NCBI GenBank assembly: GCA_024679065.1
Contig: JAGIQG010000030.1
Coordinates: forward strand, 25,730,001-25,794,000
Source of the DNA: Sphyrna mokarran
Taxonomy: Eukaryota
Length of the DNA stretch: 64,000 nt
Direction: 5' to 3'
In this document: positions 27,536 to 46,104 of the stretch, in pieces
Numbering within the stretch: position 1 is the stretch's first letter
Layout of the letters: each line of letters starts with the position of its first letter
Made by a program: the position numbers and the translations under genes
The notes under the pieces: generated by a model
The model's database searches: none
What the model was told of the DNA's origin: nothing
Seen by the model: the letters and a program-made list of their open reading frames with translations, nothing else

Positions 27536-30500
27536 TTGTTACTGTTGTGAAAGTCCAGTGTGGAAAACATTTTAGCCTGATTCTGAGTGGACAGAGACAC
27601 ACAAATTGAAATTTAGTACAATTGCTGTAAAGTTGTTTAGAGAGACCAAGCGATAGCTATTGTACAAAGTGGGAATACTTCACACTGGTGTAATTGGACA
27701 TGCTCTTCTAAACTGGGTCCAGAAGCACATTATTGGACAGGCAGTAGGGAGCTGTATTCTTTATCACAACACCCTGAGCATTGGTGCTGACATTGGTTCC
27801 CGAAATGGAAAGTTATTGCACGAGCTAAGATTTTTGCTTCATGATCAGAAAATAACTGTTTTGGAACATGTCCCAAGGAGTTTCTCTGGAAGACCTTACC
27901 ATGATGAATGTGATGACCATTACTTTGGAGTGATGGACATTGTAAATATCTGCATTACAAACAAGGAAAGGAACTGGGACTGGGTTCGAAAGTACATTCC
28001 AAGACCAATATGCCTGATACATTTCATTTGATGATCCCAAGGCGTATAAAGAATACAAAAAAAATGAATGTAATTAAAGAGGATTGAGAGAGGGACAATA
28101 AGAAGTCTCATAAATATATACTGGAGTATCTAGTAAAATGAACAATCATATCCCGCTGGATTGAAATCACTGCTGAATATTCAGAATGTTATTTGTGTTT
28201 AAAATTTCAAATATTTTATCTGATATTTACTGTCCAATGATAATGGAATCTATTTATATTCCACAATATACCAAAGTATATATGTAGATGTATGGAATTT
28301 TTCCATCTTTTTTCATGAAGAATTTTTTTAAAAGATTTTCACTGATCTATGGAGATAGGAATTTGTTCAAAGTTATTGAAATAAAGCTATGTCTATCTTT
28401 TAGAAAACTGTCCAAGGTAAATAATTTTTGCTAATATATATTGAAGAGAAAAGGTACTTAGGTTTCTGAATGTTTTGCAATGTTCCTTGGCATAAGAAAT
28501 GTCAGCAGAAATGTGTGCTTAAATTGTCATTTTAATTACTGACTATGCCATGGACAAGGATATAATTTTAATTGCTGATTATACCATGGACAATAACATA
28601 TTTTTCAATGAAATATCAAATGGTACTTTACGTCACTTTGGTCCTAATGGAATTCTGGCACAAACACTGATAAAGAACAGGCTGATTACTGACGTATTGG
28701 TCTTCAAAGGTATTCAAAACTGCAAAATATACGATGTGCAACTTAAATCAAAGTGTTGCAATATTATGATCAGCGGTCACACAGAATAGAGTTTCTTCTT
28801 AGCACATGCTGCTGGCCCCAGGCTGTATTTCACTACCCAAATATTGCTCAACAATGGAATTCAGCATCCTCTTCATTACGACCAAACTTCCGGTTATATC
28901 TAATTTGTTACTTTATACTTCTCTCTTCTATAACATGCTTTTGTTACAAAAGATTATTGCTTGAAATTAAAGCATTACCTTTTTTTTGCATTATTATCCA
29001 AACAACATGGCGGGATTGCAAAAGTGCAGCTTTGCAAGTAATTTAACTATTTCATAATTCATGCTTTATTTTACTTTTCTAAGCAAAATATTTGAATGCA
29101 ATCATCCTCTTCATTGCATGCTAAATGTAAACAAACTTATTATTTCACACATTCGTGCATATGGGAAATTCAATTGCAAAATTAACATTCATTAGTTTTG
29201 CTGATGAGATATAGCCAGGGATGTATTAGGCTTGTAATTTGGTGGATGAATGGGGACATGTTAAACCAGTTTAAATTCTGCATGGCTGTAACACTTACTA
29301 TGGTTAAACACGTCGCTTTCAAATGTAAAAAGGATTGCATAATAATTAGATTATCCCATGAGTGAAATTTCCGAACTGAAGTTCAACAATTTAAGAGGAG
29401 AACATATTGAATCTTCCGCCTCTAGTGACAGATTGACATTGACCCCACCTTGCCTAGATAAGAATGGAAAGAAATTTCACAGGTGCGATATCCTCTAATG
29501 CTTTATATGAGAAAATGGGTCAGTTTATGGACTATGACCAATTTCATTACTGTATCCAAATTGACTCAAGTTGGCCAGAGACTCTGAGATGGGACAGGAA
29601 GTCGATTGTTAAAGTGCTGGAAATACATTGCCTGGTTTCTGAAATAATCAGACTACAGTCAGATTTAATTAATGAGATTAAGACTGGGGTATCAAGGAAA
29701 ATGCCATTGGCATTTTAACCAGGCATGTTGCAGTCTAGAATTGTTCTTCTTCTTCGGAGAAGTCGGGCACGCAATCCTGAGAACAAATAAAGAAATGTTT
29801 ATTGTATAGCTGACTTCACCATCTTAAAATATAATAGCTCATTATAGGATAACTGTAGAGGTAAATAGGTATTGTATTACGATAAAACCACAGAAAATAC
29901 ATGTGGGACACCTTCCTTGGTGTTTCTGCCTCCCTTTGGGCAATCCCATTGATCTAATCTTGCACCTGTTAAACAAAATGTAGAAAGAGGTGATCGCGGG
30001 CTCCATAATTTTTAACGCAACAATCCAGAAACACTTTTCACAATTTGCAATTGATGGACATCCATGCTCTTAGGTATTAAAGCGTGCTGTAAATTGGTAG
30101 ACGATTATCTTTATAAGAACCCAACATAAGGCGACCACGACTTAAATATATCGAAGTTTTAAAACGTATCGTTTTTAAACAAAATCTTGTCATTGCATGT
30201 ACCTCTGATAACATCTTACAGTTTCATTTCAAGTGAGGGCCAAGTGCAATTTGGGCTAAAGAGGCTGGTCGAATGCTGCAAAGGAAGCCTGCTCTCTAAA
30301 GAATATGTGACCATTTAAAAAAAAATACTTCAGCACAGCTAAAACATCCCTGGCATTTGCCAAATGTATTCGCTTCTTTCCAGCGATGGTAACAATAGTC
30401 ACGAATTAATTGGGAGAGAGAGAGAAAAGACGTATGTTCCAGCTTTAAATGAACCATGGTCAGAATGATATTTGAGTCAACATAGTTGGACAAAAAAAAA

Positions 30501-32968
30501 GCTGCATTCAATGCCCAATTTGCAATGAAGTCTCAGATTTGTGTATAATGAATTCGAGTACTGTACTGTTAAGTAATCCTTCTCTGTTATATCGCATTCT
30601 GTGCCAAAATCTCAGCAATACAAATTGCATTTATTCAAGGCTTTCTATTAAGTTATAAAGCTTCACATTCGCACAAAATATCCCATTTTCCATTGTAATC
30701 GCTAATCCAAACAGATGTGATACAATTGCTTTTATTTGTGCCCAATCAGGAATATGTAAAAGGCGCAAACATTTTGGAGGTGAAGTGATGCGCTGAATTA
30801 AACTACAGTTTAACTTTCCATCCTTGATTTTTTTCTCCTCCTGCCCTAATCACTTGCTAAGTCAACAGTTATATGGAGGTCGTTGCAAAGCTAGAGGGCA
30901 GGACCAACGCATCTTAAAGCAACATTTTACAATGGATCTCAGACCCCATTCACTAACTGTTATGGAATCAATTAGCTAAATTGACAACACTACATTCAAA
31001 TAACTTTTTTAAAAAAATGTTTTTCTCGGTATAATAATACTGACTCTTCGCACCCCCCATCCTCCAGCACCACCCCTCGTCCCCCACAAACTCTACTTCA
31101 AATTTCATACAGCTGTCTCATATCATTCTACTTGTCTTGCAATATCAAAATGCTTTAAAGTCCAGGACATTTGACCTGGGCCTGAGTTGGAACTTCTGAG
31201 ACAGGTACTCCAGTGAACGGTTGTGATGGAGGAGCGGCGTATGAAGTGTCAGCCACTTCTGTGAATGCATCGAATCTTACAATGCATATGCAAAGTTATT
31301 ATTCTATTACACACTTTACCGCCGGCTTTTATTTTGGTCCCTAAACTCCTGGCATGAAGGATATGTTATATTTTCTCCTTACAGCTATTTCCATCACCGA
31401 AGAAGGAGGTAGTTAAATATTTCTGTCGGCTGCTTTTGATCATAAATCAGCGATTTGAATGATGCTGGCTTAGAATTAAAGGGTAAGCATAATATTTCAA
31501 ATAAAGCAACGGGGAATGGGGCGGGTACGGGGGGGAGGGGGGAGGTGATGGTGGATGCTGTTTATCCATTTGACATAAATGCAAGGTTTGCCCGAAACAA
31601 AAAGTCAAAAGTAGCTCCGTTTGGAACAGACATGCTTTAATTATCTCACGAAGCTGATTTCCTACACAACATAATTTCAGATTTTGGAGAGGGTGGGGGA
31701 AAAATACTAATTAAATCTAGTATCCGAGGACTGGAGATGTTTGATAACTAAAATCTTCATCAGCAATTTATCTTCCTGCAGCATAAATTTGCTGCAAAGC
31801 TGTGCTTTCATAGCTCTGACGAGTCCTATTAATCTTCTTCACCAAGTTTTCGATAGGAGTCTAGAGCTATTTGCGCCATGTGATCTGCTAACATCTAAAT
31901 TGTCATCTAGAAGGGCAGAAAGGAGCTTCCAGCTTGAGCTACTCCGCCTGCACGGTCCCAGGAAGAACATAAATAACATCGAATGCCAAATCTATTTAAT
32001 TCGAATTGATCAATACTTTAATATTACACGGAAATGTTACGTGTAATATAAGTGTCATGGTGGGTGGGGGATGGGGGTGGTGGTGGAGGGACTCCTCAGG
32101 CTAGGTCACTTGATGTCCACAACATTATAGAGAAATGCAGAAACAAAACTTAGCTATTATGCACCATGGAGATTTATTGATCAACTAGTCCGTTTATGTG
32201 CCAACATATTAGCTGGAATAATTAGGAAGAGACAAGATTCCAGCAAGTAACTCTGGGCAATGGGATCAAGTAATTAAGTTGCTTGCATTAGGGAAGAATA
32301 ACGGGGGCTATGGATGGGAGCTTGTTCCTAGCCAGTCACTTCAAAGGACGTCTTGAGCCATTTTTTTAAATGACCAAAAATGAAGTTTGATAAATTTGCC
32401 TGTATCAGCGTATTGTTTTGTTCACACTCTGTTAAGTAATGTCAAAAATGCCTTCCGATCCAATAGTTATTCGAAAATAAGTTGAACATGAAAAATATAT
32501 GCCAAACTTTAAAGTGACTGATTTTGCATTTGGCATGTAAATAGTGTCAGGAATAGGTAGTTTACACAAACGCCTTTGTGCTGAATTATAAACAAGCACC
32601 CACAGACATAATAAATTTGAATGTAAAGTTCTGATCAGATAGCTAACAGTCATTTTATGGAGATAGGAAATCACAGTGTAACCCTATTGCAATGTCACGC
32701 CACGGCAGAGTCAAACGTATCTCTTACTATTATCTCCCTTACGAACTACATCTACTTTGGTTGTAAAGAGGAGAGGGAAGGGGGAAAAGGAAGAGATAGA
32801 AAAATGCTGGCGTTCTGCCTAAAGAGAAATCATTGAAACAAATTAATCCTTCGCCGGTTAAATTGACATGGCAATCCATCATCTCAGAGCCAGCCTCTGA
32901 AAGCAATCTACTGGCTGCATGTTCTCAGATTGGCCCGGAGGGCACAGAGACAGATAGAGAAGGGGAAA

Positions 32969-33000
<32 letters not shown>
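32969..33000 (+). repeat. Poly-G tract (32 nt)
   Basis: Read directly. Confidence 0.95.
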
Positions 33001-33001
<1 letters not shown>

Positions 33002-36000
33002 GCATGCCTGTAACCTGCAACTTTAAATGAACAACAAAGTATTTATGGAAAAAATGCGACGACAATAAAAGAAACCTAAAAGTTAAAGCAGCACCCACGT
33101 CGGTGATTAATGGAAGTTAAAACGTACACTGAAACTGACTGTTCACAGAGGAAGACAAGATAGACAGCAGGTGAAATGTCTGCTCCCCACATCTTGTGTA
33201 AACAATATGGTACTTTGGTTAAAAAAAAGTGACACTGTCTCAGAAGCGTTAATTAATAGCAAAACTGAAGTTTCTTTTTTTAAAAAAAGGAACTGTTAGA
33301 ACATCTATCCATCTTTTAAAACATAAAATAAGCATAGAATAATCATATTTCAAAATAAGCCACAAAATGCTCAGTTATCTAAAACCTGAATTGGAACCAG
33401 TTGCAAACAAGGGAAACCCCAATTGGTTTTCTATTAAATTGGAGTGGAGTGAGACTGCAAATCTAATTTCGCACCTATATTACTGCAGTCTTGTTGAATT
33501 TGGGGTGGGGTAGTCCGGACGGGGTGGGGGAGACTAATCATTTGCTGTAATACTTTATTGACGGTTGGACCCAGGTTTAGCACAAACTTGCAAACGTCGC
33601 GCTGAGAGATCGCCGAATTCGAGAGATGTGTGAAGTTGTGTGGTGAGGAAAGGCTATCCGGGGACGCGAGTAAAAGCCTTTAAACAATATATTAAGAGGA
33701 AAGCTGTAGAATCCTAGCGTTTCCCCAATAATTAAAGCGGACAGTGACAAATTGGTTTACATCGGTAATACAAATCGTGTCTGCAGCAGTCTAGAAGCAG
33801 GTACCAAAGTTTAAAAAAAACAGCTTTTCGTAGAAGTTCGTTTTTGCTCTGAAGAAAAGTTCAATTCTTTGCGCTCCAAATAAATGTGCTTGTTTCTATT
33901 GTCCAGCCAAGACCAGACTGGACATACATTCACAACACAAATGCCTCTTTTAAATTCTATTTGTTCTCTGTCCCTAACCCTAAACTCGGTCCTCATAATA
34001 TCCATCATTCTGTTACCCAAACTTTTACTTTCTCCGCCTCAAATCATCTTTTTGACACCCCCTATTGACAGCTCTTGTTTCTTGTTTGTTTCTGGGGGTC
34101 GGTGAGTATCGATCCCATTGCTCCGCTACCTTTCAGCATCATTCATCCTGTAGCGTGAGGGAGTGCAAAGTGCATCGCAAGTTGGGGTCGGTTAAAGAAA
34201 GCATTCGAAATGGATTTGAAGTCAGAAATCTGCATGAGCTGCCAATTGCCATTTGTACCCTGGGTCGGAAAATGTGCGGATTCTGACTGTGAATCGATGT
34301 ATAAACATGCAATGTGTGGAGAAAGGCGAGAGGAATCTCTTGTACAAACAATGATTACGAAAAAAAAACTACTCGACGATATAAAAAATCAGCAAAATTC
34401 TCAACCTGCGATTTCACAACAAATCAAATACTTGTCAATTATTTCTGAAATTCTAATAGCCCGGATCTCTACCCAGTTTTCAGCTAGTCTTGTCATTTAA
34501 TCCTCTATTGTCTGGTTTCCTCGCACCAGACCATACCCAGAGAAGTTTATCACCAGAGAACTATATTATTTCTCCTCTCCCCAGCCAACGAAACGCCAGT
34601 GAGTTTCTAACAGGACCCTCGCCTGCTCTGAAGCTTTCCGCCTCCCCTTCAAACTCTATCAGATGTTTTTACGTGTTCATTAGCCTGGTTAACCTTTGCT
34701 ATATCTTGGGCCGGGATGGGTTAATCAGGGCAACACCGTGAGGCCTGGGGTCAGAGGCGACCATCTTGAGCTTGGAGTGTGGGATTTTTGCTGGAAGGTG
34801 AGGGTGCATGCATCCTCTCTTTCTCTCTCTCTCTTTCACACACACACACACTCTCTCTCTATCACTATCATCCTCTCCACCTGCAGCTCTCAGTTTATCT
34901 CCAGGGAGTGCAAAACAGGAGATGACACTCTACAAATCGCTAATTAGACTTTCCCAGATACCTCGGGATGCGGTTTGCCTTTTCGCTTCTATGCGGCTTT
35001 ATAGCTAAATATAGATAGAAGCTTAATTTATTTAAAAATGTTAACATGCAGCTTTGCTTCGGCATCCTGCTGTTTTTTTTTAAGTGTATCTATTTACATC
35101 AATGTTATGACATCTAGTATTTGTCTGTGTATATGCATTGGAATATATAGATATACTATGTTCATATATTTTTCATCCTTTCCTTTTTCTTTTGTATTTA
35201 CACTTCAGCCAACGGTAGATGTTATTCACTAATACTGGAAGCTAACACTGACACCTCTTGTCCTTTCTCGTTCTTTTCCCATAATTTTCTATGGCAGCCT
35301 GCTTTTTTAATATACATCCTTAACACTGCACTTTCCCCACCGTCTGAAATCACCTCCTAATCAGTGTCTATCGATTTTCGCACCTCTTTTTATCCGGTTA
35401 TCCCAGCATCTGAAACATGCCTTTAAAACCTCTCTCTCTTTACACACAGTGATTTACCCCCTTGCTCTCTGCTCACCAGCGGAAAAAAACAATCGATATG
35501 CCCGTGTTATTTGTGTGTGATCAGTAAATATTTGGTCTGGTGACATCTTCAGCTTTCCTCCCAATCGATACAGGACCCAATAGGAGGCGTGCTGCAATCT
35601 GTAGACAACTACTGTCTCCATGGTGTACCTTTCTAGCCCTTCTCGTTTTCTCTCTCTCTCTCTTTCTCTTCCTGCTCTTCTGTTAAGATCAATTTCTTCT
35701 TGACTCAACCCCTGAGTCACGCCCAGTATCCCTTTAATGCGACACGATTGTTAATAAGCTAGTTGTCTTGTTATCATCAACTTTCCATTCATAAAACGGA
35801 GTGACTTATTAAGGCTAGAGTGTACATAATCACTTAATAGCACAAGTATTGGCGCTAACCTGATTTTTCTAATGCCATGCATTCGCAGGACACCCCGGCA
35901 ATGCAATGAGTTGTGCTTATCTTCAACAATACCATACATTTTAAATCGGTGTTAATTTTATTTTTCAGTTGCAGCAGAGTTCGCACGTCGACCATCATTT

Positions 36001-37859
36001 GAGTACAGACGCTTTCTAGAAGTGAAATCAATGAGACATTTTATGTTGAGATTCAACGCTGTAGTGTTAACTTTTTTTTTTGACTTATTGACAAGACCTG
36101 GGTTACAAGCATTGCATCTGACCTTTTAAGTTTCAACTATCCCTTCCCAATTAGACCACAATGTTATTTGCTTACATGTTAAGCGTACGCCGCTGAACTT
36201 CACCGCCACCTCTCCGCCACACCCACCCCCAGTTAACTTTAAAATGTATTTCTCTATACGATGCTTAATTGAAACCAAAAGGAAACGTTTTATTTGTTCG
36301 AATTGGACAAATTTCAGCTGTGCTCTGCAATTACTAGTTAAGCGGCGTCCTCACAATGCAACCACAAGTCCTTTGAGAAAGTGCATGAGTTATATATGTT
36401 TGCAGGCATCAAACACCTAGAACATATCCAGTTAGGTTTTTATTTAGCATCATTAACAATTAAAATAGAGTTTCATATACAAGAATGACTTATGTTCAAA
36501 TGCACTTTAAATTGTTCTCCCTCGTTTAGGCATTTCACTAACAGGTTTGCTTCTTATATACCACACAAAAAAAATCAATAAATTTCTGATGGGCAAAAGG
36601 CGTTTTAAAAACATATACAGATGTATCCATATGAAATGTCTATATCATGTTTAGGTTCTCTCACCTATTACTCCATTAAAAATGGTTGTATGGAAAAGTA
36701 GTGGAGCGGCTAATACTGGCAAGATCTGGAAGTGCACATATACTTAATGATTTAATTGCGGCAGATTCCTACCCTAGAATCCGGAGAGTGAACAGTATTT
36801 AGCTGCAATCAGGCCAAAAATGTTGCACAAGATTTTTCTCTTGAAAGAGTGCCTATGTGTCCATTGAAGGGCGCTGATCCGAAAAGACAGAGCGGACAAA
36901 TAAAAATCGATCTGAAGCGACCCTGGCCGTCCTTTTCACACGATTCACACACAATCCCCTCTCAACTCTGCCGAGACAAAGGCCCGAGGGCTGGGGAGGG
37001 GTGGGGGGGGAGTGTGGCTGGAGGAGAGATTCTCCACAAGCTACAGATACCCTTTCCAAAACGCGCAGATAATTTTACACTGGCCACAAACCACATTCTA
37101 CATCAACATTTCTTCTCAAAACCTCAAAGCAATATTAGCTCTTAAGACAGGGCGTTGATGGGGTAAAGAGGGGGGCGGGAGTGAGGTGGGGGGGAGCGGT
37201 TAAGCGTTGGAGAAAATCATCACCTTGGTAATTCTGAGGTTCCTGGCAAGTTTGCAGAAGGAATAAACTACAGACAAATGAACTTTGACAACAAGAAAGT
37301 TGCCCAAACTCCAGCGAGCACACGAGTCTGATATTATTTGGGGATGTGTGTTTAAAACAAAAGGTTTTAATTCAATTATTCCTCTCTCTCTTTCTCTACC
37401 TCTCTCTCTCTCCTTCCTCTTACTTAACTAACTCAGGGGCAAAGCATTTCTGGTTTGAGGCTGAGAGTTCTAAACTAGCCTCTGTACTCTTGCCTTCCAC
37501 GTTTGCCTCTTAAAAAAGGGAATTAAAGGAAAGGGAATTTTAGTAAAGAGATGTGGAACTGATCTCAGCAAAAGAGTCAAAAATTGCTAAGAGTAATCGC
37601 TCTTGTATTGCTCGGGGGGTGCTTTGACCGCTCGCATTCCGGTGCACTTTGAATTGCTCGGGCAGTAACGCCAGTCCCATAAAGTTTACCAGGAGATGGG
37701 GCGAAAGTTAAATTGCAAAATCGAAAGTGCTTCACTTGTTTCTGAATATGTCAAATGCAAAGCTTCTCGCCAAAGGTTAGCCTTTTCTTTTTATATAAAA
37801 AATATATATCACAGTTTACACTATCGGTCGGGGCAAACAGATGACGGTCGATGGAATGA

Positions 37860-38076
37860 ATGATTGTCTTCAATAGACAAATAGATCAGGTGAGGAGGAG
37901 ACAAACCCTCCTTCTGTTCACCTGCCAGAAAAAAAAGAGATTCATCTCACTCAGTAATTTCCAACTCAGTTCCGCCAAGATTCACAACTTCCTGTGTCCA
38001 GAGAGGAGACTCGAACCCACCACGACGCAAATAATTTCGGACACTGAACAAAGACAATTGCAAGCAATGATGTTTG
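37860..38076 (+). CDS. NR2F2: Putative alternative upstream first exon of NR2F2 (DBD-less isoform)
   Basis: Open frame ending ...TQIISDTEQRQLQAMMF-G then donor GTATGT at 38077, phase 1 and so compatible with exon 2; resembles the remembered human isoform-b N-terminus MQAVWDLEQGKYGF; lies about 5 kb upstream of the main ATG. Confidence 0.6.
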
Positions 38077-39254
38077 GTATGTTTTTAATAAATATATATG
38101 TATATATATATTACTTAGCTTGGGGAAGGGTAGGTTTTTTTTCTTGATCAGGACATAATCGTTCTTAAACACCTGTATTTATTAATTAATCTATATTATT
38201 TTGACATAAAGCAGTTTAGAATTTCAACACTCGGAGGATATTCAATGTCCGTTCAAACAATTACATTTGGGGCTTTAATTCATTTGAGTTTTTTTTGCTT
38301 TCTCTGTCTGTCTTCGAAAAGACATTAAATCAGGCTGGTGTTTTATATTTTTGCTCTGGCTATTTTTGACAATCGAGCGAACAGCCCTTGCGGATCCGCG
38401 TAGTTCTGTGTATGTCTCCCAGCGCAATAGCCATCACCCGTCGGACATTCAATCGCACCCGCGTATGGGTCGCGGTATCTCCCCACTGTGTAATATTAGC
38501 AATAGACAACAGAAGGTCCCGCAACAATACGAATTCGCCAACTTAGAAATAAACAGGGGCTTCGAATCTTTCTGAAACGGCTTGCCCCGTCCTGGAAACC
38601 CAAAGCCTCTTTGCCCCCGCGTTTCAATGAATTAGATTTGTCCCCCCCACCACTTCATTGTCAAACTGTAATAGTGTAATACTGCTTTGATTTACAACGC
38701 TAGCTTGAGCTCATTTCTAAAACTTTTTAAAATAGACATGTAAAGCACAGAATCGCCGCGAATAAGAAATTAACTATTACTACAATCAACAGATATAATA
38801 TTTGATCTGGGTATTAGAAATTGGTACTCACCACTTTTCTATCTAGATCCACATACTCATCTGATGATTTGGGGGCAAAGGCGTATTTATTTATGGGGGG
38901 GTAGGAAACAGCCGTCTTCGATTTAGCTTTACGGCGTTAGAAGAATCGCTTTAGAGAGAGAGGGAAGAAAAACAAATCTGTTACCAATCGGTTGTTTTGG
39001 AAAAGAAGTCTCAACGCCAACCATCTAAGTCAAGCAAGCGTCCGGGCAGATCTGGGTAAAATAAAAACACAAAGCGACGGAGATCAGCAGTCCCGCTCAG
39101 TAACGTCCGAGTCAATTAGAGCAAAATCCTAAAGAATTAATCACATTAAAGGTGCAGAAGTTTTTTTTTCGGGGTATAAAGGGCGCGTTGTGAGCGAAGA
39201 GGCGCCGCGATCCTTTTGAAAGGCTTTTCTCCTCTGGAGTTCTACAGCGACACT

Positions 39255-39275
39255 CCATACGCTAGGTGGCAGCCA
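39255..39275 (+). promoter_or_regulatory. Candidate CTCF site
   Basis: ACGCTAGGTGGCAG fits the CTCF core consensus; CTACAG just upstream resembles the upstream motif. Confidence 0.5.
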
Positions 39276-42059
39276 GATACTGTACAAGATTTTGACAAAT
39301 TCTCCAGCATATGCTGCGATTTAGCACTGTAAATTTTTCAGGAGCCCGCTGCACTGACAGCTCCCGGTGTCTATCAAAGTGCCACAAGTCACCGCTTCAA
39401 AACTGCAATGACTTTGAGATCACCGGGACACAATGGGAACCACTTTCCCTATTCATCGTGTTGCAATGTAGTGTGTGTGAGAGAGAGGGGAGAAAAACCA
39501 GGGCAAAATCACAGGGAACTCAAATTCAATAGATCTAGCTGGTTATCAGAGAACAACTGAGAAGTAAGTGGCAACCAGATCGTCTTATAAATAGGTTACT
39601 CTGGCCAAGCTATGGTTGGCACCCAGTGCAATATTCAATTTACCAAATACTATACGTTCCCTCATCTTTTTTTTTAAAGAAATACATTTAAATGGCGGTT
39701 GCTGGTTTGCTCCAGAACAAATCCGAAGTTACTTCTGAAATTATTGCAACCTGTCCATTTGTAATAAAGAAAACAATGAGTAGATTCTGCTCTAGAAAAC
39801 CTACAAAATCCAATCTTGTGGGGCTGGGGAGAAGGAGGTGGGAAGGGGGGGGAGACACCTATACTGGCTTTATGCATATTTCGCCAAATAACGTTGATAT
39901 CCTGGCACATTAGTTTAATTAGCAACATAAGATATTCGATTTATATTTCTCAAAATTGACCGCATGTTGCATTTTGGATTGTTGAGTGTCAATGCTTCAT
40001 ATTGTCTTTTCTTCTGACACTTTTTTAAAAATCAACTGTTACATTTGAAAAGATGCATGCATTCTGCAAATTGCAATTGCTGAAGATGCTTTATGCTGAA
40101 GGGTTTTGCCCATTCTTTGCTAATGTGAGTGAGCGTGGTTTCTTGTACGATTTCATCAAATGAGCATCAAGTCGAAATTGAGTTTATTTACCCTTCAAGT
40201 AACCAGATTAATAGTGCGTTATAGCTTTTTTAAAAATATACTTTATTAAATTGTAAACACATCACTAAGAAATTGCTCCCACAGACTATCGACATTCAGG
40301 CAAATTTCTGAAAGAAATTCAAAGCAGCAAAGAGAGAGAGAATAATTGTGTCGAGTAACGGTATTTGAAGTAATACCCTACTTGTACCTCAAATCGAACA
40401 CCTGTTTAATGTCATCTTTCCCTGGACCCGTGTTCTTCCCTCGAATGTTCATAATTTCACATTTTATATGTTAACTGGCAGTCGTCATTTAAGCGTGTAA
40501 ATATTGGACCATTAAAAGTAACACGTACTTTTAGTTTTCCACGAGTGAATTGCGAAATGCACAAGGCTCCTCTAAAAATGTGTAGTAAAGTGCATCTTTT
40601 TAGAATGTTGGATATTGTGAAACGTGCATCTGCAACTCGGCGCCGGCGAATTCCTAACACTTCGCAATTTCCTACAATAATACAATACATTCTTCTTTTT
40701 TCTTTGCAAACATCAGTTCATTTACATCTACTTACTTAGCAGGCTAAGATAAATTTCGCAAATCACCCATTGCTGCAATTAAATATAACCCTAAATGCGA
40801 CCAGAACCTCCAAAAACCAATGAATATACCTGAGTCAGTACATTTTTCACGAACATAATAACATTTGTCAATTTTGCTCTGTTGAAACCATCACTTCTTA
40901 GTTAATTCTAGCAGCGATACCAATAGACTAATCTCAACCAACCCGACTGACTACTGGATGTAATGTGCTGTAAATGCAAAATAAAAACATTGGAAAATCG
41001 AATCTATGATCATAGAGGGGCACGAAGGGGGGAAAAGCGTTATCGGGGCAGCCCGGTTCCAAAGATTCGCCGCTCTTCCACATTGTTTTGGGGGAATTTG
41101 AAGCGAAATTATTCATTAATCTGCATGCATCTCTGTGTATCTCTGTCTATGTGTTTCTATGCATCTAGCTAAGTGCACGCACACTTCAAAGCTGTTTCCA
41201 CTTTTAAGTATTTCAAAGTAAACGTGATATTTATCCGTATTAATAATGGTTCATCAGATGAATGAGACCCTCTCGAACATTCATGGCTTCTTTCAGCCTA
41301 CACACCTTCTGCAATCCGTACAGGAACAATTCTTCTTCATAAACCAGCCGTGGCTGATTTCTGACATGGTTGGTCCTTAATTTTATTTGGATACTTTCAT
41401 TTTTTTAAAAAAAATCTTGAAATAATCCTTGCCACACTTTCCCCAACAACTCCCGTCAGGACATCTCAATCAGTGCAAAAAAAAAAGCCTCGCCGCCAAT
41501 GTTCCATCTTTCAGCAGCAACTTTTGTCCTTGACCAGAAACTGATTTGTGAATAGTATGTGTTTTATTCTCTGGTATTGATGGGGTGGGGGTGGTGATGG
41601 GGCTAGCATTTGTGTTCGAGAACCTGCTTGCTAAAGAACCTTCGGGGGGGGGGGGAGATATATATTTATCTATTTGCCCATACAAGCCAAAGGGTGGATT
41701 CTTTATTAATATCAAGTTGGCATTGCAAGATTCCACCTCCAATAAAAAAGGACGAGTTTATACACAATTGGGAGTACTCAATGTGGTTGAGAATTTCTGC
41801 TTTATTGGATTATTTAATATACATGTTGTTAATTTGTGATAGCAATTTTTTTTAAAAAAAGAAAATTGAGTTATTGCCAATTTATTTTTAAAAAATGAAG
41901 AAACAGGGTGTGGGGGATAGGGTGGGAGTGGGCTGATGGGGAGGGAGGGAGGGAGGGGGAGAGAAATAGAAAACTTATTTTTTTCCCCCAAGTAGACCTC
42001 TGCGCATGGATGTAATGTAAATTTGTTGGCGGCCAGGACGTGCTGGATAATAAGTAAGG

Positions 42060-42260
42060 CGACTGTCCAATGCGGTACAGGGGGCGGGCCAGATGTCCCA
42101 GCCCCCCGAACCTAAAGCTCTGACCAGTCGCCTTTGATTGTCAGTCGCCAGCAGCCGCCGCTTGGCTCCGTCACTCGGCAGCCCCATATAAGGAAAGCAT
42201 CTCCATAGAAACGTGTCAGTTTCAATAGTCGTGTCAAAGTTCACTATATACAGCCATCCG
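42060..42260 (+). promoter_or_regulatory. NR2F2 main proximal promoter
   Basis: CCAAT 42067-42071, GC box 42081-42088, TCF/LEF CTTTGAT 42132-42138, CArG CCATATAAGG 42184-42193, DR1 42231-42243, TATATA 42245-42250; CpG-rich. Confidence 0.8.
42231..42243 (+). promoter_or_regulatory. DR1 nuclear-receptor element (retinoic-acid/COUP-TF response element)
   Basis: GTGTCA-A-AGTTCA directly 5' of the TATA-like box, matching the DR1 I recall from the mammalian COUP-TFII promoter. Confidence 0.75.
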
Positions 42261-42274
42261 CGCAGATTTCCCCT

Positions 42275-42999
42275 TTCAGAAAAATTACTCCGCAAGCCCG
42301 CTCGTTCAAATCGGATTCACTTCCAACCCCCCTTTTTGCATATTTGATCAGTTCGATTCTCTCTCCCTTCCCTTATTTTTCGCCTCCTCTCGCATGAGAG
42401 AGGTTCTATAGCTCCCCTTTTTTTTCCACGACGTCGACTCCTATTTTTTTTGTGTGTGTAGTCTCTCTCTTTTTTTTTGCTGGCGAGTTGTTGAGTCTCT
42501 TCCTCTGTGTGTGTATGTGTGTGTATGTGTGCAGTTCCCCTACCAGTACGGCGAAGAATTTATGATCAGTTGATGGTCGGGCACTTCTACTCCGGATCGT
42601 GCATTTGCCTTCAAGAGTCGATCCCCCCTCTCTTTTTTCCTTCTTTTTAATCTTTTAACCTTTCGTTCCCCCCCTTCGTCCTTTTTTATGGGTTTCCTGA
42701 ATGGCTGACTGCGTGCTGCCCTGGTACTGGCCCCCCGACACTCGCTTCTTCTCTGCCGATCGGATTTGAGCTCCTACTCTTTCTCTCTCTCCCTCCCCCT
42801 CTCTTTCTCTTTCTCTCTTTCTCTTTCTCTCTCTCTCTCTCTCTCCCCCCTCTCTCTCCTTCTCTCCCTCCCTCTCTGTATTTTTTTTGGGGGGGTTGTT
42901 GTCAGCTAATCGACTCTTCCTCCTTCGTTTTGTTCCTGATCTGACGATTCCAAGACAAGACAGGTTTTGTTTTGTCTGATAACACTCTTGCCCCGAGAT
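42275..42999 (+). other. Probable 5' UTR of the main NR2F2 transcript
   Basis: TSS inferred about 25-30 nt after the TATA-like box; pyrimidine-rich with CT and TG repeats and several upstream ATGs. Confidence 0.55.
42780..42878 (+). repeat. CT-rich microsatellite in the 5' UTR
   Basis: Read directly. Confidence 0.9.
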
Positions 43000-43420
43000 A
43001 TGGCAATGGTAGTTAGTACGTGGCGAGACCCGCAGGACGACGTGGCCGGAGCGCAGGGCACACAGCCACCCCCGCCTCAGCAAGGACCGCAACCGCCTTC
43101 TGGAGCACCCCTTACCCCGCAGACCCCAGGGCAGCCGGGAGCCCCGGGCACCCCGGCCCAGTCCAACCAGCAGAACCAGCAACAAGGCGAGAAACAGCAG
43201 CAGCATATCGAGTGTGTGGTGTGTGGCGACAAATCGAGCGGCAAACACTACGGCCAGTTCACCTGCGAAGGTTGCAAGAGTTTCTTTAAGAGAAGTGTGC
43301 GCAGAAACTTGACGTACACATGTCGTGCCAACAGGAACTGCCCCATAGACCAACACCACCGCAATCAGTGTCAGTACTGCCGCCTGAAAAAATGCCTGAA
43401 AGTCGGCATGAGACGGGAAG
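43000..43420 (+). CDS. NR2F2: NR2F2/COUP-TFII coding exon 1 (A/B region and C4 zinc-finger DNA-binding domain)
   Basis: ATG at 43000 gives [14 protein letters not shown]...; [28 protein letters not shown] and the second zinc finger run to [10 protein letters not shown]; donor GAAG|GTATTG at 43420/43421; 421 nt, phase 1. Confidence 0.98.
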
Positions 43421-44200
43421 GTATTGAGAATTCATTTATTTCCAAATGTTTGCGCTTACTCTAAACCAGCAACCCACCCTTTCCAACCCCAACCCACCCA
43501 CCCACTCCCACCTCCGGCAGAAAGGGAGCTGAACTGCTCTGACTTAATTCTGTAAAGTTGTAGTGTGTGTGTGTGCTCCCCTGGCATGCCAGTTAAAATC
43601 AATTGAGTCTGTACTTTAGAGGGTGCCTCTGGTTGAGAAAGTCCTCAAAGTATTCTTTGCAAATGATTTTGATCTGTGTATGTATGTGTGTGTGTGTGTA
43701 TGTGTGTGTGTTGTCTGGGGGGAGAGAGAAAGAGAAAACTGTATGTGTGTGTATGTATGTGTGTATGAAAGAGAAACAGAGAAGGGGGTCTTTTGAAAAT
43801 AGTAAGATGCTGATAGAAGTGTGCTTTGATTGTAATCTATATTTTAAAAAATGTGTTGTTACCCACGAAACTTCACACGAAAAGAGAGGAGGGTGTGAAT
43901 AATGTCCTGTGCAAGTTGGAACAGTTTGCAGAGTGAAGTCCAGATAGGGAAATAAATCAGCCATTGTTGTAAAAAAAAACCAGATTCAATCAGTTTTTTA
44001 ACACACGCTTTAGGGAAATGACATAGCAAAATGGCATGGCAGTGTTCGGTTTAAAATATGCCGGCTAGCTTTAATACACACAGCTTCACGTTGTACAGCC
44101 GGTGGGAGATTTTTTTTGTGTTAAAAAAATGATAGTGTATGCAGCAGTTATTGTTGTTGGAAAATGGCTCAGGGGTGTGTATTGTATGCAAACTGTCTGA

Positions 44201-44812
<612 letters not shown>

Positions 44813-44965
44813 TGATCTGTAATCAGAACAGCCATGATATCAGGTCAGAAATGAGCATACAGTCAATTACTAAGCTCTGATCTCAGTGTGGTGTCATGTA
44901 CCCTTTATATAACATCTATATTATTATAAACATGGCTCCATGTTTTAGCACTATGTAAGTTTTAA

Positions 44966-45014
44966 AATATAATTGAAACAATTGCTTTAAAAAAGCAATT
45001 GTTTCAATTATATT
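44966..45014. repeat. Perfect 23-bp inverted repeat with a 3-nt loop
   Basis: AATATAATTGAAACAATTGCTTT-AAA-AAAGCAATTGTTTCAATTATATT. Confidence 0.95.
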
Positions 45015-46104
45015 AAAGATCTCATCTCAAATAGAGTTACTACAAAATTTCTAATATTTCACATCCCACTATTATTATTTTAAAATTAAGTGCAAATGAA
45101 GACCAGGGATGACGATGAAAATATAGTTATATTTTGTCATTTTGCAAAAAAAATCAGTTTGAGTTGAATACGCCTTCATATAGTGTGCAAAATTGCTGCA
45201 TTTAACTTCGAACAGTAGCGCAATCATTCATGTGGACTTGGGATAAAACGTCCAGGGGTTGATATCAGGAAGCAGAAATGTTCAGTTTCTGTGGGAAAGC
45301 AGTTCACAATCCTTTCCTTGTTGTGTTAGGGTGATCTGGGTATCCAGAGGACTCTCTGGACCCCTTCCAGTGCTCGGGTCGTGACCCGAGCTTCCTTTTC
45401 TATATTATTACTTCACACATAAAAAAAAACCCATGCTTTTCCAAAATGTCCTTTTTTAAAAAACCAAACTAATCAAATTAGAAGCGAACATTTAGTTAGA
45501 GGGAAAAAAATATCCAGGCGGCTGAGCTTAAGTGGGGGTGACGTGTTGTGTGTTTGCTTTAAGTTATCACATGCCAGTTTTTGTGAAGTACTATTTTTCT
45601 TAGTCTTTTTTTTATACTTGAATTACTAACCGACTTGGAAACACTTTTAAATGTTATGCGGTTTATTTTGTTTGTTCAGTCTACTTGATCCTACTCAACC
45701 AAGAGCAATCGATGACATTACCATAGCAGTTAATTTATTACTATTTGTGAAATGTCAGGCCTTGTGTGCAGTCAAGCAAACTCACTGTTTTGTGAGCACT
45801 TTGCTATTACATGCTGTTGGGGGGTGGATATACATAAGCATAAATATACAACACTACATGCCAGAGATAGTAAAATCTGGTTTAAGTTTAGGAAACCCCC
45901 CAAAAAGTGAAATGTGGTTGTGAATGGTTGCTGTATCTGTGCATTGTGTTTTCTTTGATGACTATAATAATATGCGTCTGTTGGGCTGGGTCTAGAACAT
46001 TGCAAGATGCAATGGCTAGGTCAGGTCATAACCTATGCTCTCTAATTAAAGGTCCTATGCACGTATGGGTGTAATTTATTTAATCCTGCACTTTTTTTCT
46101 CTAA

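Follow-up and report, generated by a model that had tools for sequence, protein, structure and literature searches.

A likely shark counterpart of the NR2F2 isoform 2 first exon in Sphyrna mokarran and the probable loss of its old start codon in galeomorph sharks

Organization of the NR2F2 locus

The analysed stretch of DNA from Sphyrna mokarran (64,000 nucleotides of contig JAGIQG010000030.1; in the following, the window) harbours a three-exon COUP-TF gene on the + strand (Table 1). Exon 2 matches the solved ligand-binding domain (LBD) of COUP-TFII (3CJW; E 1e-96), and the translation of exons 2 and 3 is the exact sequence of shark RefSeq models named COUP-TF2. Searching the species' own genome with exon 2 yielded four matches (100, 98, 82 and 77 % identity). 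The 98 % match is located on another contig (paralogue L002/L005) and possesses an NR2F1-type hinge, as in NR2F1-named proteins; the hinge of the window gene matches NR2F2-named proteins. Since the copy with the NR2F1-type hinge sits elsewhere, the gene in the window is by its sequence NR2F2 (COUP-TFII), not NR2F1, F5 or F6.

The acceptor side of exon 2 offers some choice. A second in-frame acceptor at 44235, 21 bases upstream of exon 2 (44235-44255), adds seven residues that skate model P0182 also has, letter for letter, and a similar insert of 6-7 residues is found in 7 of the 12 tetrapod full-length models printed. The tandem CAGCAG at 44253-44258 allows for a further 3-base acceptor choice.

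Table 1 Features of the NR2F2 locus (positions within the window)
Feature	Position	Strand	Remarks
TATA-like box TATAAAA, possible core promoter of the upstream exon	37794..37800	+	inferred from sequence
CpG-retaining region around the upstream exon	37501..39500	.	o/e 0.71, 1.14, 0.94, 0.85 in 500-base bins; window median 0.39
Short upstream ORF, 11 codons, out of frame	37841..37876	+	second ATG inside at 37856 (G at -3)
Two-codon upstream ORF ATG-GAA-TGA	37851..37859	+	G at +4; directly before ATG 37860
72-codon open frame from weak-context ATG	37860..38076	+	T at -3, A at +4; would give 339-aa form; homologues P0180-P0184
Stretch between +1 insertion (A run, ~37929) and +2 insertion (AG, ~38002) relative to horn shark	37929..38003	+	frame differs from four other elasmobranchs
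ACG at the place of the inferred ancestral start ATG	38025..38027	+	A at -3, C at +4
Two in-frame ATGs, likely working starts, 270/269 aa	38067..38072	+	38067 with G at -3, 38070 with A at -3
Phase-1 splice donor GTATGT (G/GTATGT at 38076/38077)	38077..38082	+	6179-base intron to exon 2
Canonical exon 1, coding part (AF-1 and DNA-binding domain)	43000..43420	+	left out of short isoform
Exon 2 (hinge and first part of ligand-binding domain)	44256..44783	+	acceptor CAG/ at 44255/44256; 175 full codons
Exon 3, coding part, up to stop codon	46157..46431	+	91 codons

The upstream exon and its local signals

A sequence-only reading of this locus had proposed an alternative first exon, the phase-1 donor of which (38077) joins exon 2 in frame, with the DNA-binding domain (DBD) skipped and the whole LBD kept. 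This junction, 4923 bases upstream of the canonical ATG at its donor end, is confirmed in the sequence, and RefSeq models of six named elasmobranchs (skate, sawshark, horn shark, whale shark, white shark and bamboo shark) share this junction of upstream exon and exon 2. RefSeq models are predictions, the start of which is chosen by software. A sequence check found all coordinates of the proposal to be correct (TATA box, ATG-GAA-TGA, ATG 37860, ACG 38025, ATGs 38067/38070, donor and acceptor), and the proposed product lengths follow from the codons contributed by exons 2 and 3, i.e., 339, 284, 270 and 269 aa for starts at 37860, 38025, 38067 and 38070, respectively. Judged by sequence, every candidate product is LBD-only. 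A further in-frame ACG is located at 38022.

Taken alone, the local signals of the exon are not above chance. The TATAAAA heptamer occurs in 17 copies on the + strand of the window, so that the box at 37794 is weak by itself. When GT sites on the + strand were scored with an approximate matrix, 116 of those in 100-42000 equalled the donor at 38077; 28 of these 116 have an in-frame phase-1 ATG, and a single one, the donor at 38077, is preceded by at least 60 open codons. CpG is retained around the exon: among the 32 bins printed for 30001-46000, the one at 38001-38500 stands highest, with an o/e of 1.14; values above 0.6 are found in 45 of the 127 window bins, and the upstream exon lies within a broad CpG-rich domain. 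It is homology that lifts the exon above chance, since the 14-residue peptide of human isoform b, which the sequence-only reading had named, was found letter for letter in primate model P0154, and since the elasmobranch RefSeq models have the same junction.

A repeat origin of the upstream exon was rejected, as the exon is single-copy in its own genome in a search that skips very common words. In the 19.8 kb surrounding NR2F1 exons 1-2 its DNA found no match, all scores staying in the range of shuffled sequence. Blastn with the exon found none in the NR2F1, NR2F5-like and NR2F6-like stretches, and five motifs taken from annotated short leaders of NR2F1 are all absent from the shark NR2F1 upstream stretch. 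Since the paralogues yielded no match to the exon, these comparisons do not support its origin before the genome duplications. Rfam returned no matches in the window.

Other parts of the locus do have counterparts at NR2F1: (i) an 88-base non-coding element (window 32803-32890 vs L006:6996-7082; 86 % identical), ~10-11 kb upstream of each ATG and likely a duplicated conserved enhancer, (ii) the canonical promoter region (window 42002-42400 vs L005:7100-7489; 74 % over 407 bases) and (iii) a 5' UTR block (window 42693-42745 vs L005:7735-7787; 53 bases, 91 %). Thus, the promoter and 5' UTR blocks are common to the NR2F1 paralogue, the upstream exon is not. Among amniote NR2F1 models (P0010, P0135-P0147), many annotated DBD-less forms have short, unrelated leaders.

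Counterparts in bony vertebrates

With exon 2 as query, the protein search had 1962 candidates, of which 565 were 96-307 aa long; 120 were listed. Forms of 281 aa, in which a 14-residue leader is joined to exon 2, account for 5 of 15 listed (136-member cluster, 40 members read) and are from bat/shrew, lizard, tailed frog, caecilian and bichir. The models of bichir (P0127), tailed frog (P0128), caecilian (P0133) and lizard (P0124) share with the sharks the join to exon 2, and that of bichir additionally EQR in the leader; they differ in that their leader is ATG-led and lacks the three-codon addition of the sharks. A 13-residue leader in three teleost proteins aligns poorly (scores 1-4). The one listed short model of coelacanth with a leader of its own (P0134) carries an unrelated 24-residue leader, and a V2-type exon was not found there.

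To gauge the likeness, the last 20 codons of the window before the donor were scored against the five non-teleost leaders. Among 5537 GT-anchored candidates, taken from seven paralogue stretches and the two strands of the window, the window leader had rank 12. Among the 986 + strand sites upstream it was third (tied), and it came first among the 255 sites of 32000-42200, limits that were set by the analyst. The Met-containing leaders of skate and sawshark scored 15.8 and 15.4, compared to 15.2 for the best background. At the peptide level, the likeness to bony vertebrates is real but modest, and not unique window-wide.

The leader likeness together with the shared junction bears out the proposal that the exon corresponds to the first exon of human NR2F2 Iso2/V2 (NM_001145155) and that its product is devoid of the DBD. 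In human and mouse, Iso2 is likewise described with a first exon upstream of the canonical promoter that is spliced to exon 2, resulting in a protein with full LBD and no DBD (PMC10073109, PMC7016888, PMC8997336). The shark leader aligns with that of human and mouse at Q, D/E, EQ and the final F. It differs in that (i) the leader region is three codons longer, (ii) the homologous start is ACG instead of ATG, (iii) in-frame ATGs are located three and two codons before the donor, and (iv) an open 72-codon frame extends upstream.

Elasmobranch models and probable loss of the old ATG

A search with the 72-aa frame produced two matches among 22 candidates, i.e., thorny skate X4 (338 aa) and whale shark X3 (339 aa), the clusters of which also contain skate X3, horn shark and sawshark. 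As the UniRef label "n=2 Galeoidea" of the whale-shark model may refer to the 270-aa fragment, it was not taken to stand for a second species. The 72-aa N-terminus can therefore not be called novel, as the sequence-only reading had done: it is already contained in RefSeq models of four named elasmobranchs, and sharks differ in the frame in which they read its middle. These models of 338-345 aa (thorny skate, sawshark, horn shark and whale shark; P0180-P0184) agree with the window in first ATG and junction, and 60-64 of 71-72 residues are identical if frameshifts are allowed. They differ in that the window reads ~23 codons in another frame and that skate and sawshark possess Met at the old start.

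In the alignment column of the window ACG, skate (P0180) and sawshark (P0184) have Met, horn shark (P0183) and whale shark (P0181) have Thr. This agrees with the suggestion of the sequence-only reading that the ACG stands where an ATG once stood. Horn, whale and white shark belong to the Galeomorphii, sawshark to the Squalomorphii (taxonomy look-up). With Thr in the galeomorph horn and whale shark and Met in the squalomorph sawshark and in skate, the old ATG was probably lost in galeomorph sharks, and one loss on the galeomorph stem would be the simplest history.

The 270-aa product of ATG 38067 is identical to RefSeq model P0185 (exact look-up), which is found on 8 contigs under four accessions. 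The species named on it are white shark (X3) and bamboo shark (X4), both of them galeomorphs. At the protein level these two models do not differ from the window, and no long form is annotated for them among the entries listed. Since a 270-aa model implies that no ATG is present at the old site, the loss is supported independently of the window. The 284-aa skate-type form had no exact sequence match in the protein collection.

The exon and its products are thus already in RefSeq for sharks and skate; what the analysis adds is the placing of the ATG loss in galeomorph sharks and the mosaic of reading frames found in the upstream extension.

The 72-codon frame

In a frameshift-aware alignment, 64 of 71 residues match between window and horn shark. 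Between the two insertions of the window, identity to horn shark amounts to 23/24 in the abandoned frame, compared to 4/21 in the frame now read. Conservation of this stretch is either at the DNA level, or the shift is recent, or it reflects an assembly error. Whale shark has its own, different +1/+2 pair, and sawshark a +3. No single reading frame is therefore conserved across the species, window and whale shark each shifting a different stretch, and the 72-residue extension looks unconstrained. For one residue in the whale shark stretch (P0181 residues 16-24 vs window 37905-37928), the simplest change, as deduced from the protein, would put a stop in the frame of the other sharks.

The last 16 codons before the donor show 2 parsimony changes, compared to 18 in the 54 codons upstream (one-sided P 0.13), which would fit continued translation there, but is suggestive only. 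The 16 residues following the ACG are identical to skate in the window (16/16) and horn shark (16/16), and nearly so in whale shark (15/16).

Searches for further relatives of this region were negative. The exact 24-base scan of metagenome contigs for exon DNA of other sharks gave 0 stretches, and short relatives (39-126 aa) of the 72-aa peptide were not found. HMMER against 1.84 billion representatives returned one match, a 1548-aa repeat protein aligning in 7 stretches with the frame-shifted middle only, which was rejected as chance.

Choice of the start codon

One may ask whether the leader is still translated in galeomorphs, either from the relic ACG, a non-AUG start tuning down a COUP-TFII modulator, or from ATG 37860 by means of two compensating frameshift pairs. 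We regard this as unlikely.

For the second route, the 339-aa form would have to be real and selected, with the frame kept open, the middle residues free to vary and compensating frameshift pairs fixed twice independently. Skate, sawshark, horn shark, whale shark and the window all have this frame open over 71-72 codons, the net change is +3 in both frame-shifted lineages as well as in sawshark, and residues 1-14 show 2 changes. In addition, compensatory pairs with a bias to gene ends are documented in PMC8935012, where +1 and +2 indels restore the frame near the gene end as in the window; the shark frame may differ from these pairs in being noncoding, and one of its indels may be an assembly error. 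However, the list of open frames is ascertained, since the search finds only species with an open frame. A 270-aa model would mean that the long frame is unusable, and this model is on 8 contigs compared to at most 2 per long model. Moreover, both compensations involve the same A run, with phase restored by chance in roughly one of three cases (rough estimate), and ATG 37860 has the weakest context and lies behind three other ATGs. Either selection keeps the long frame open, or it drifts, the variable A run restoring the phase by chance. The number of contigs with the 270-aa model favours drift, but could also reflect short transcript models. Altogether, a selected 339-aa form appears decidedly unlikely.

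Less likely still is the first route, in which ACG 38025 (or 38022) has remained the main start, as a non-AUG relic that keeps a 17-residue leader (284 aa) at lower yield. The purine (A) expected at -3 in a strong context is present, as the sequence-only reading had pointed out in proposing this start, the position is that of Met in skate and sawshark, and the following residues are near-identical to skate. However, the G at +4 of a strong context is replaced by C, and ACG is a weak, context-dependent start according to PMC5666671, which ranks it below CUG and GUG and assigns context more weight in case of non-AUG codons. Two ATGs with purine at -3 are located only 42-45 bases downstream, and the whole exon is conserved as DNA including an unread frame, so that conservation of the peptide is no proof of its translation. 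Nothing in these data shows the ACG to be used as a start, and the form most often annotated is that of 270 aa.

Lower again in probability is the reading that the exon is transcribed and spliced with little protein made from it, the upstream ATG cluster damping translation and a promoter or RNA-level role being what is conserved. The presence of four ATGs within 20 bases, two of them in fair context with tiny ORFs, would agree with this, as would conservation independent of frame and the tolerated loss of the old start codon. On the other hand, the in-frame Met near the donor is kept in 5/5 elasmobranch rows (column 69, no change), an ATG-led leader is kept in bony vertebrates from bichir to mammals, and the human protein is reported to be detected with a leader-specific antibody (PMC8997336).

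That donor 38077, with its ordinary score, is unused in S. mokarran and the match is leftover or chance sequence seems very improbable, as six named elasmobranchs have independent models with this junction and the window has kept donor, phase and last 16 codons.

Proposed mechanism

We therefore consider the upstream exon to be probably the shark counterpart of that of NR2F2 isoform 2 (COUP-TFII V2), likely spliced to exon 2 and most likely giving rise to a 270/269-residue LBD-only form from ATG 38067/38070; for S. mokarran itself we infer splicing and start choice from the sequence. Accordingly, ACG 38025 would be best read as the relic of the old start.

The ancestral exon may have had an ATG start followed by a short leader peptide. 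Elasmobranchs would then have gained three codons near the donor, one of them an in-frame ATG, which may have rendered the old ATG dispensable and allowed its change into a Thr codon, once, on the galeomorph stem. In the present exon, transcription may start near 37825, as suggested by the TATA box. Ribosomes would then encounter four ATGs (37841, 37851, 37856 and 37860). The two in best context (G at +4; G at -3) would open ORFs of 2 and 6 codons, and 37860 has neither base. With no other ATG between 37860 and 38067, ribosomes would leak through to or reinitiate at 38067/38070, so that ATG 37860 and the ACG may yield minor longer forms at most. The LBD-only protein would bind full-length COUP-TFII and, by analogy with the human isoform, may shift its output up or down depending on context.

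Relation to the known isoform and implications

Among the primary papers on V2 are those of Yamazaki 2013 and of Rosa and Brivanlou 2011. A 2019 review reports V2 for mice and humans only (PMC7016888), the human first exon being placed upstream of the canonical one (PMC7016888, PMC8997336). The human isoform is described as having a start site under the control of methylation, and as binding the full-length form, with effects that vary by context (PMC10073109); co-immunoprecipitation and reduced DNA binding are described as well (PMC8997336). Both reports study DBD-less COUP-TFII as a driver of metastasis. In the suggestion of the sequence-only reading that the shark product is potentially dominant-negative or cofactor-like, dominant-negative is too simple, since the human isoform is described to act both ways by context (PMC10073109, PMC7016888). 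Transfer of these functions to the shark protein is by analogy. Among the papers listed by a literature search, mostly from outside subscription journals, none was found to deal with cartilaginous fish in connection with this isoform or with how old the isoform is.

The finding is a gain in evolutionary reading and not a new gene: the exon represents a real, old alternative first exon, and the shark form a variant of NR2F2 Iso2 without the homologous AUG. An LBD-only isoform dating to the jawed-vertebrate ancestor, as proposed from the sequence, is supported as probable by the models of sharks, skate and bony vertebrates. As it is found in sharks, skate, bichir, amphibians and a lizard, the isoform may be an inbuilt modulator that goes back to the first jawed vertebrates, and this age argues for a normal developmental role of the DBD-less form. 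That the start codon could be lost in one shark lineage points to a dispensable 14-residue leader, with the function perhaps carried by the LBD alone.
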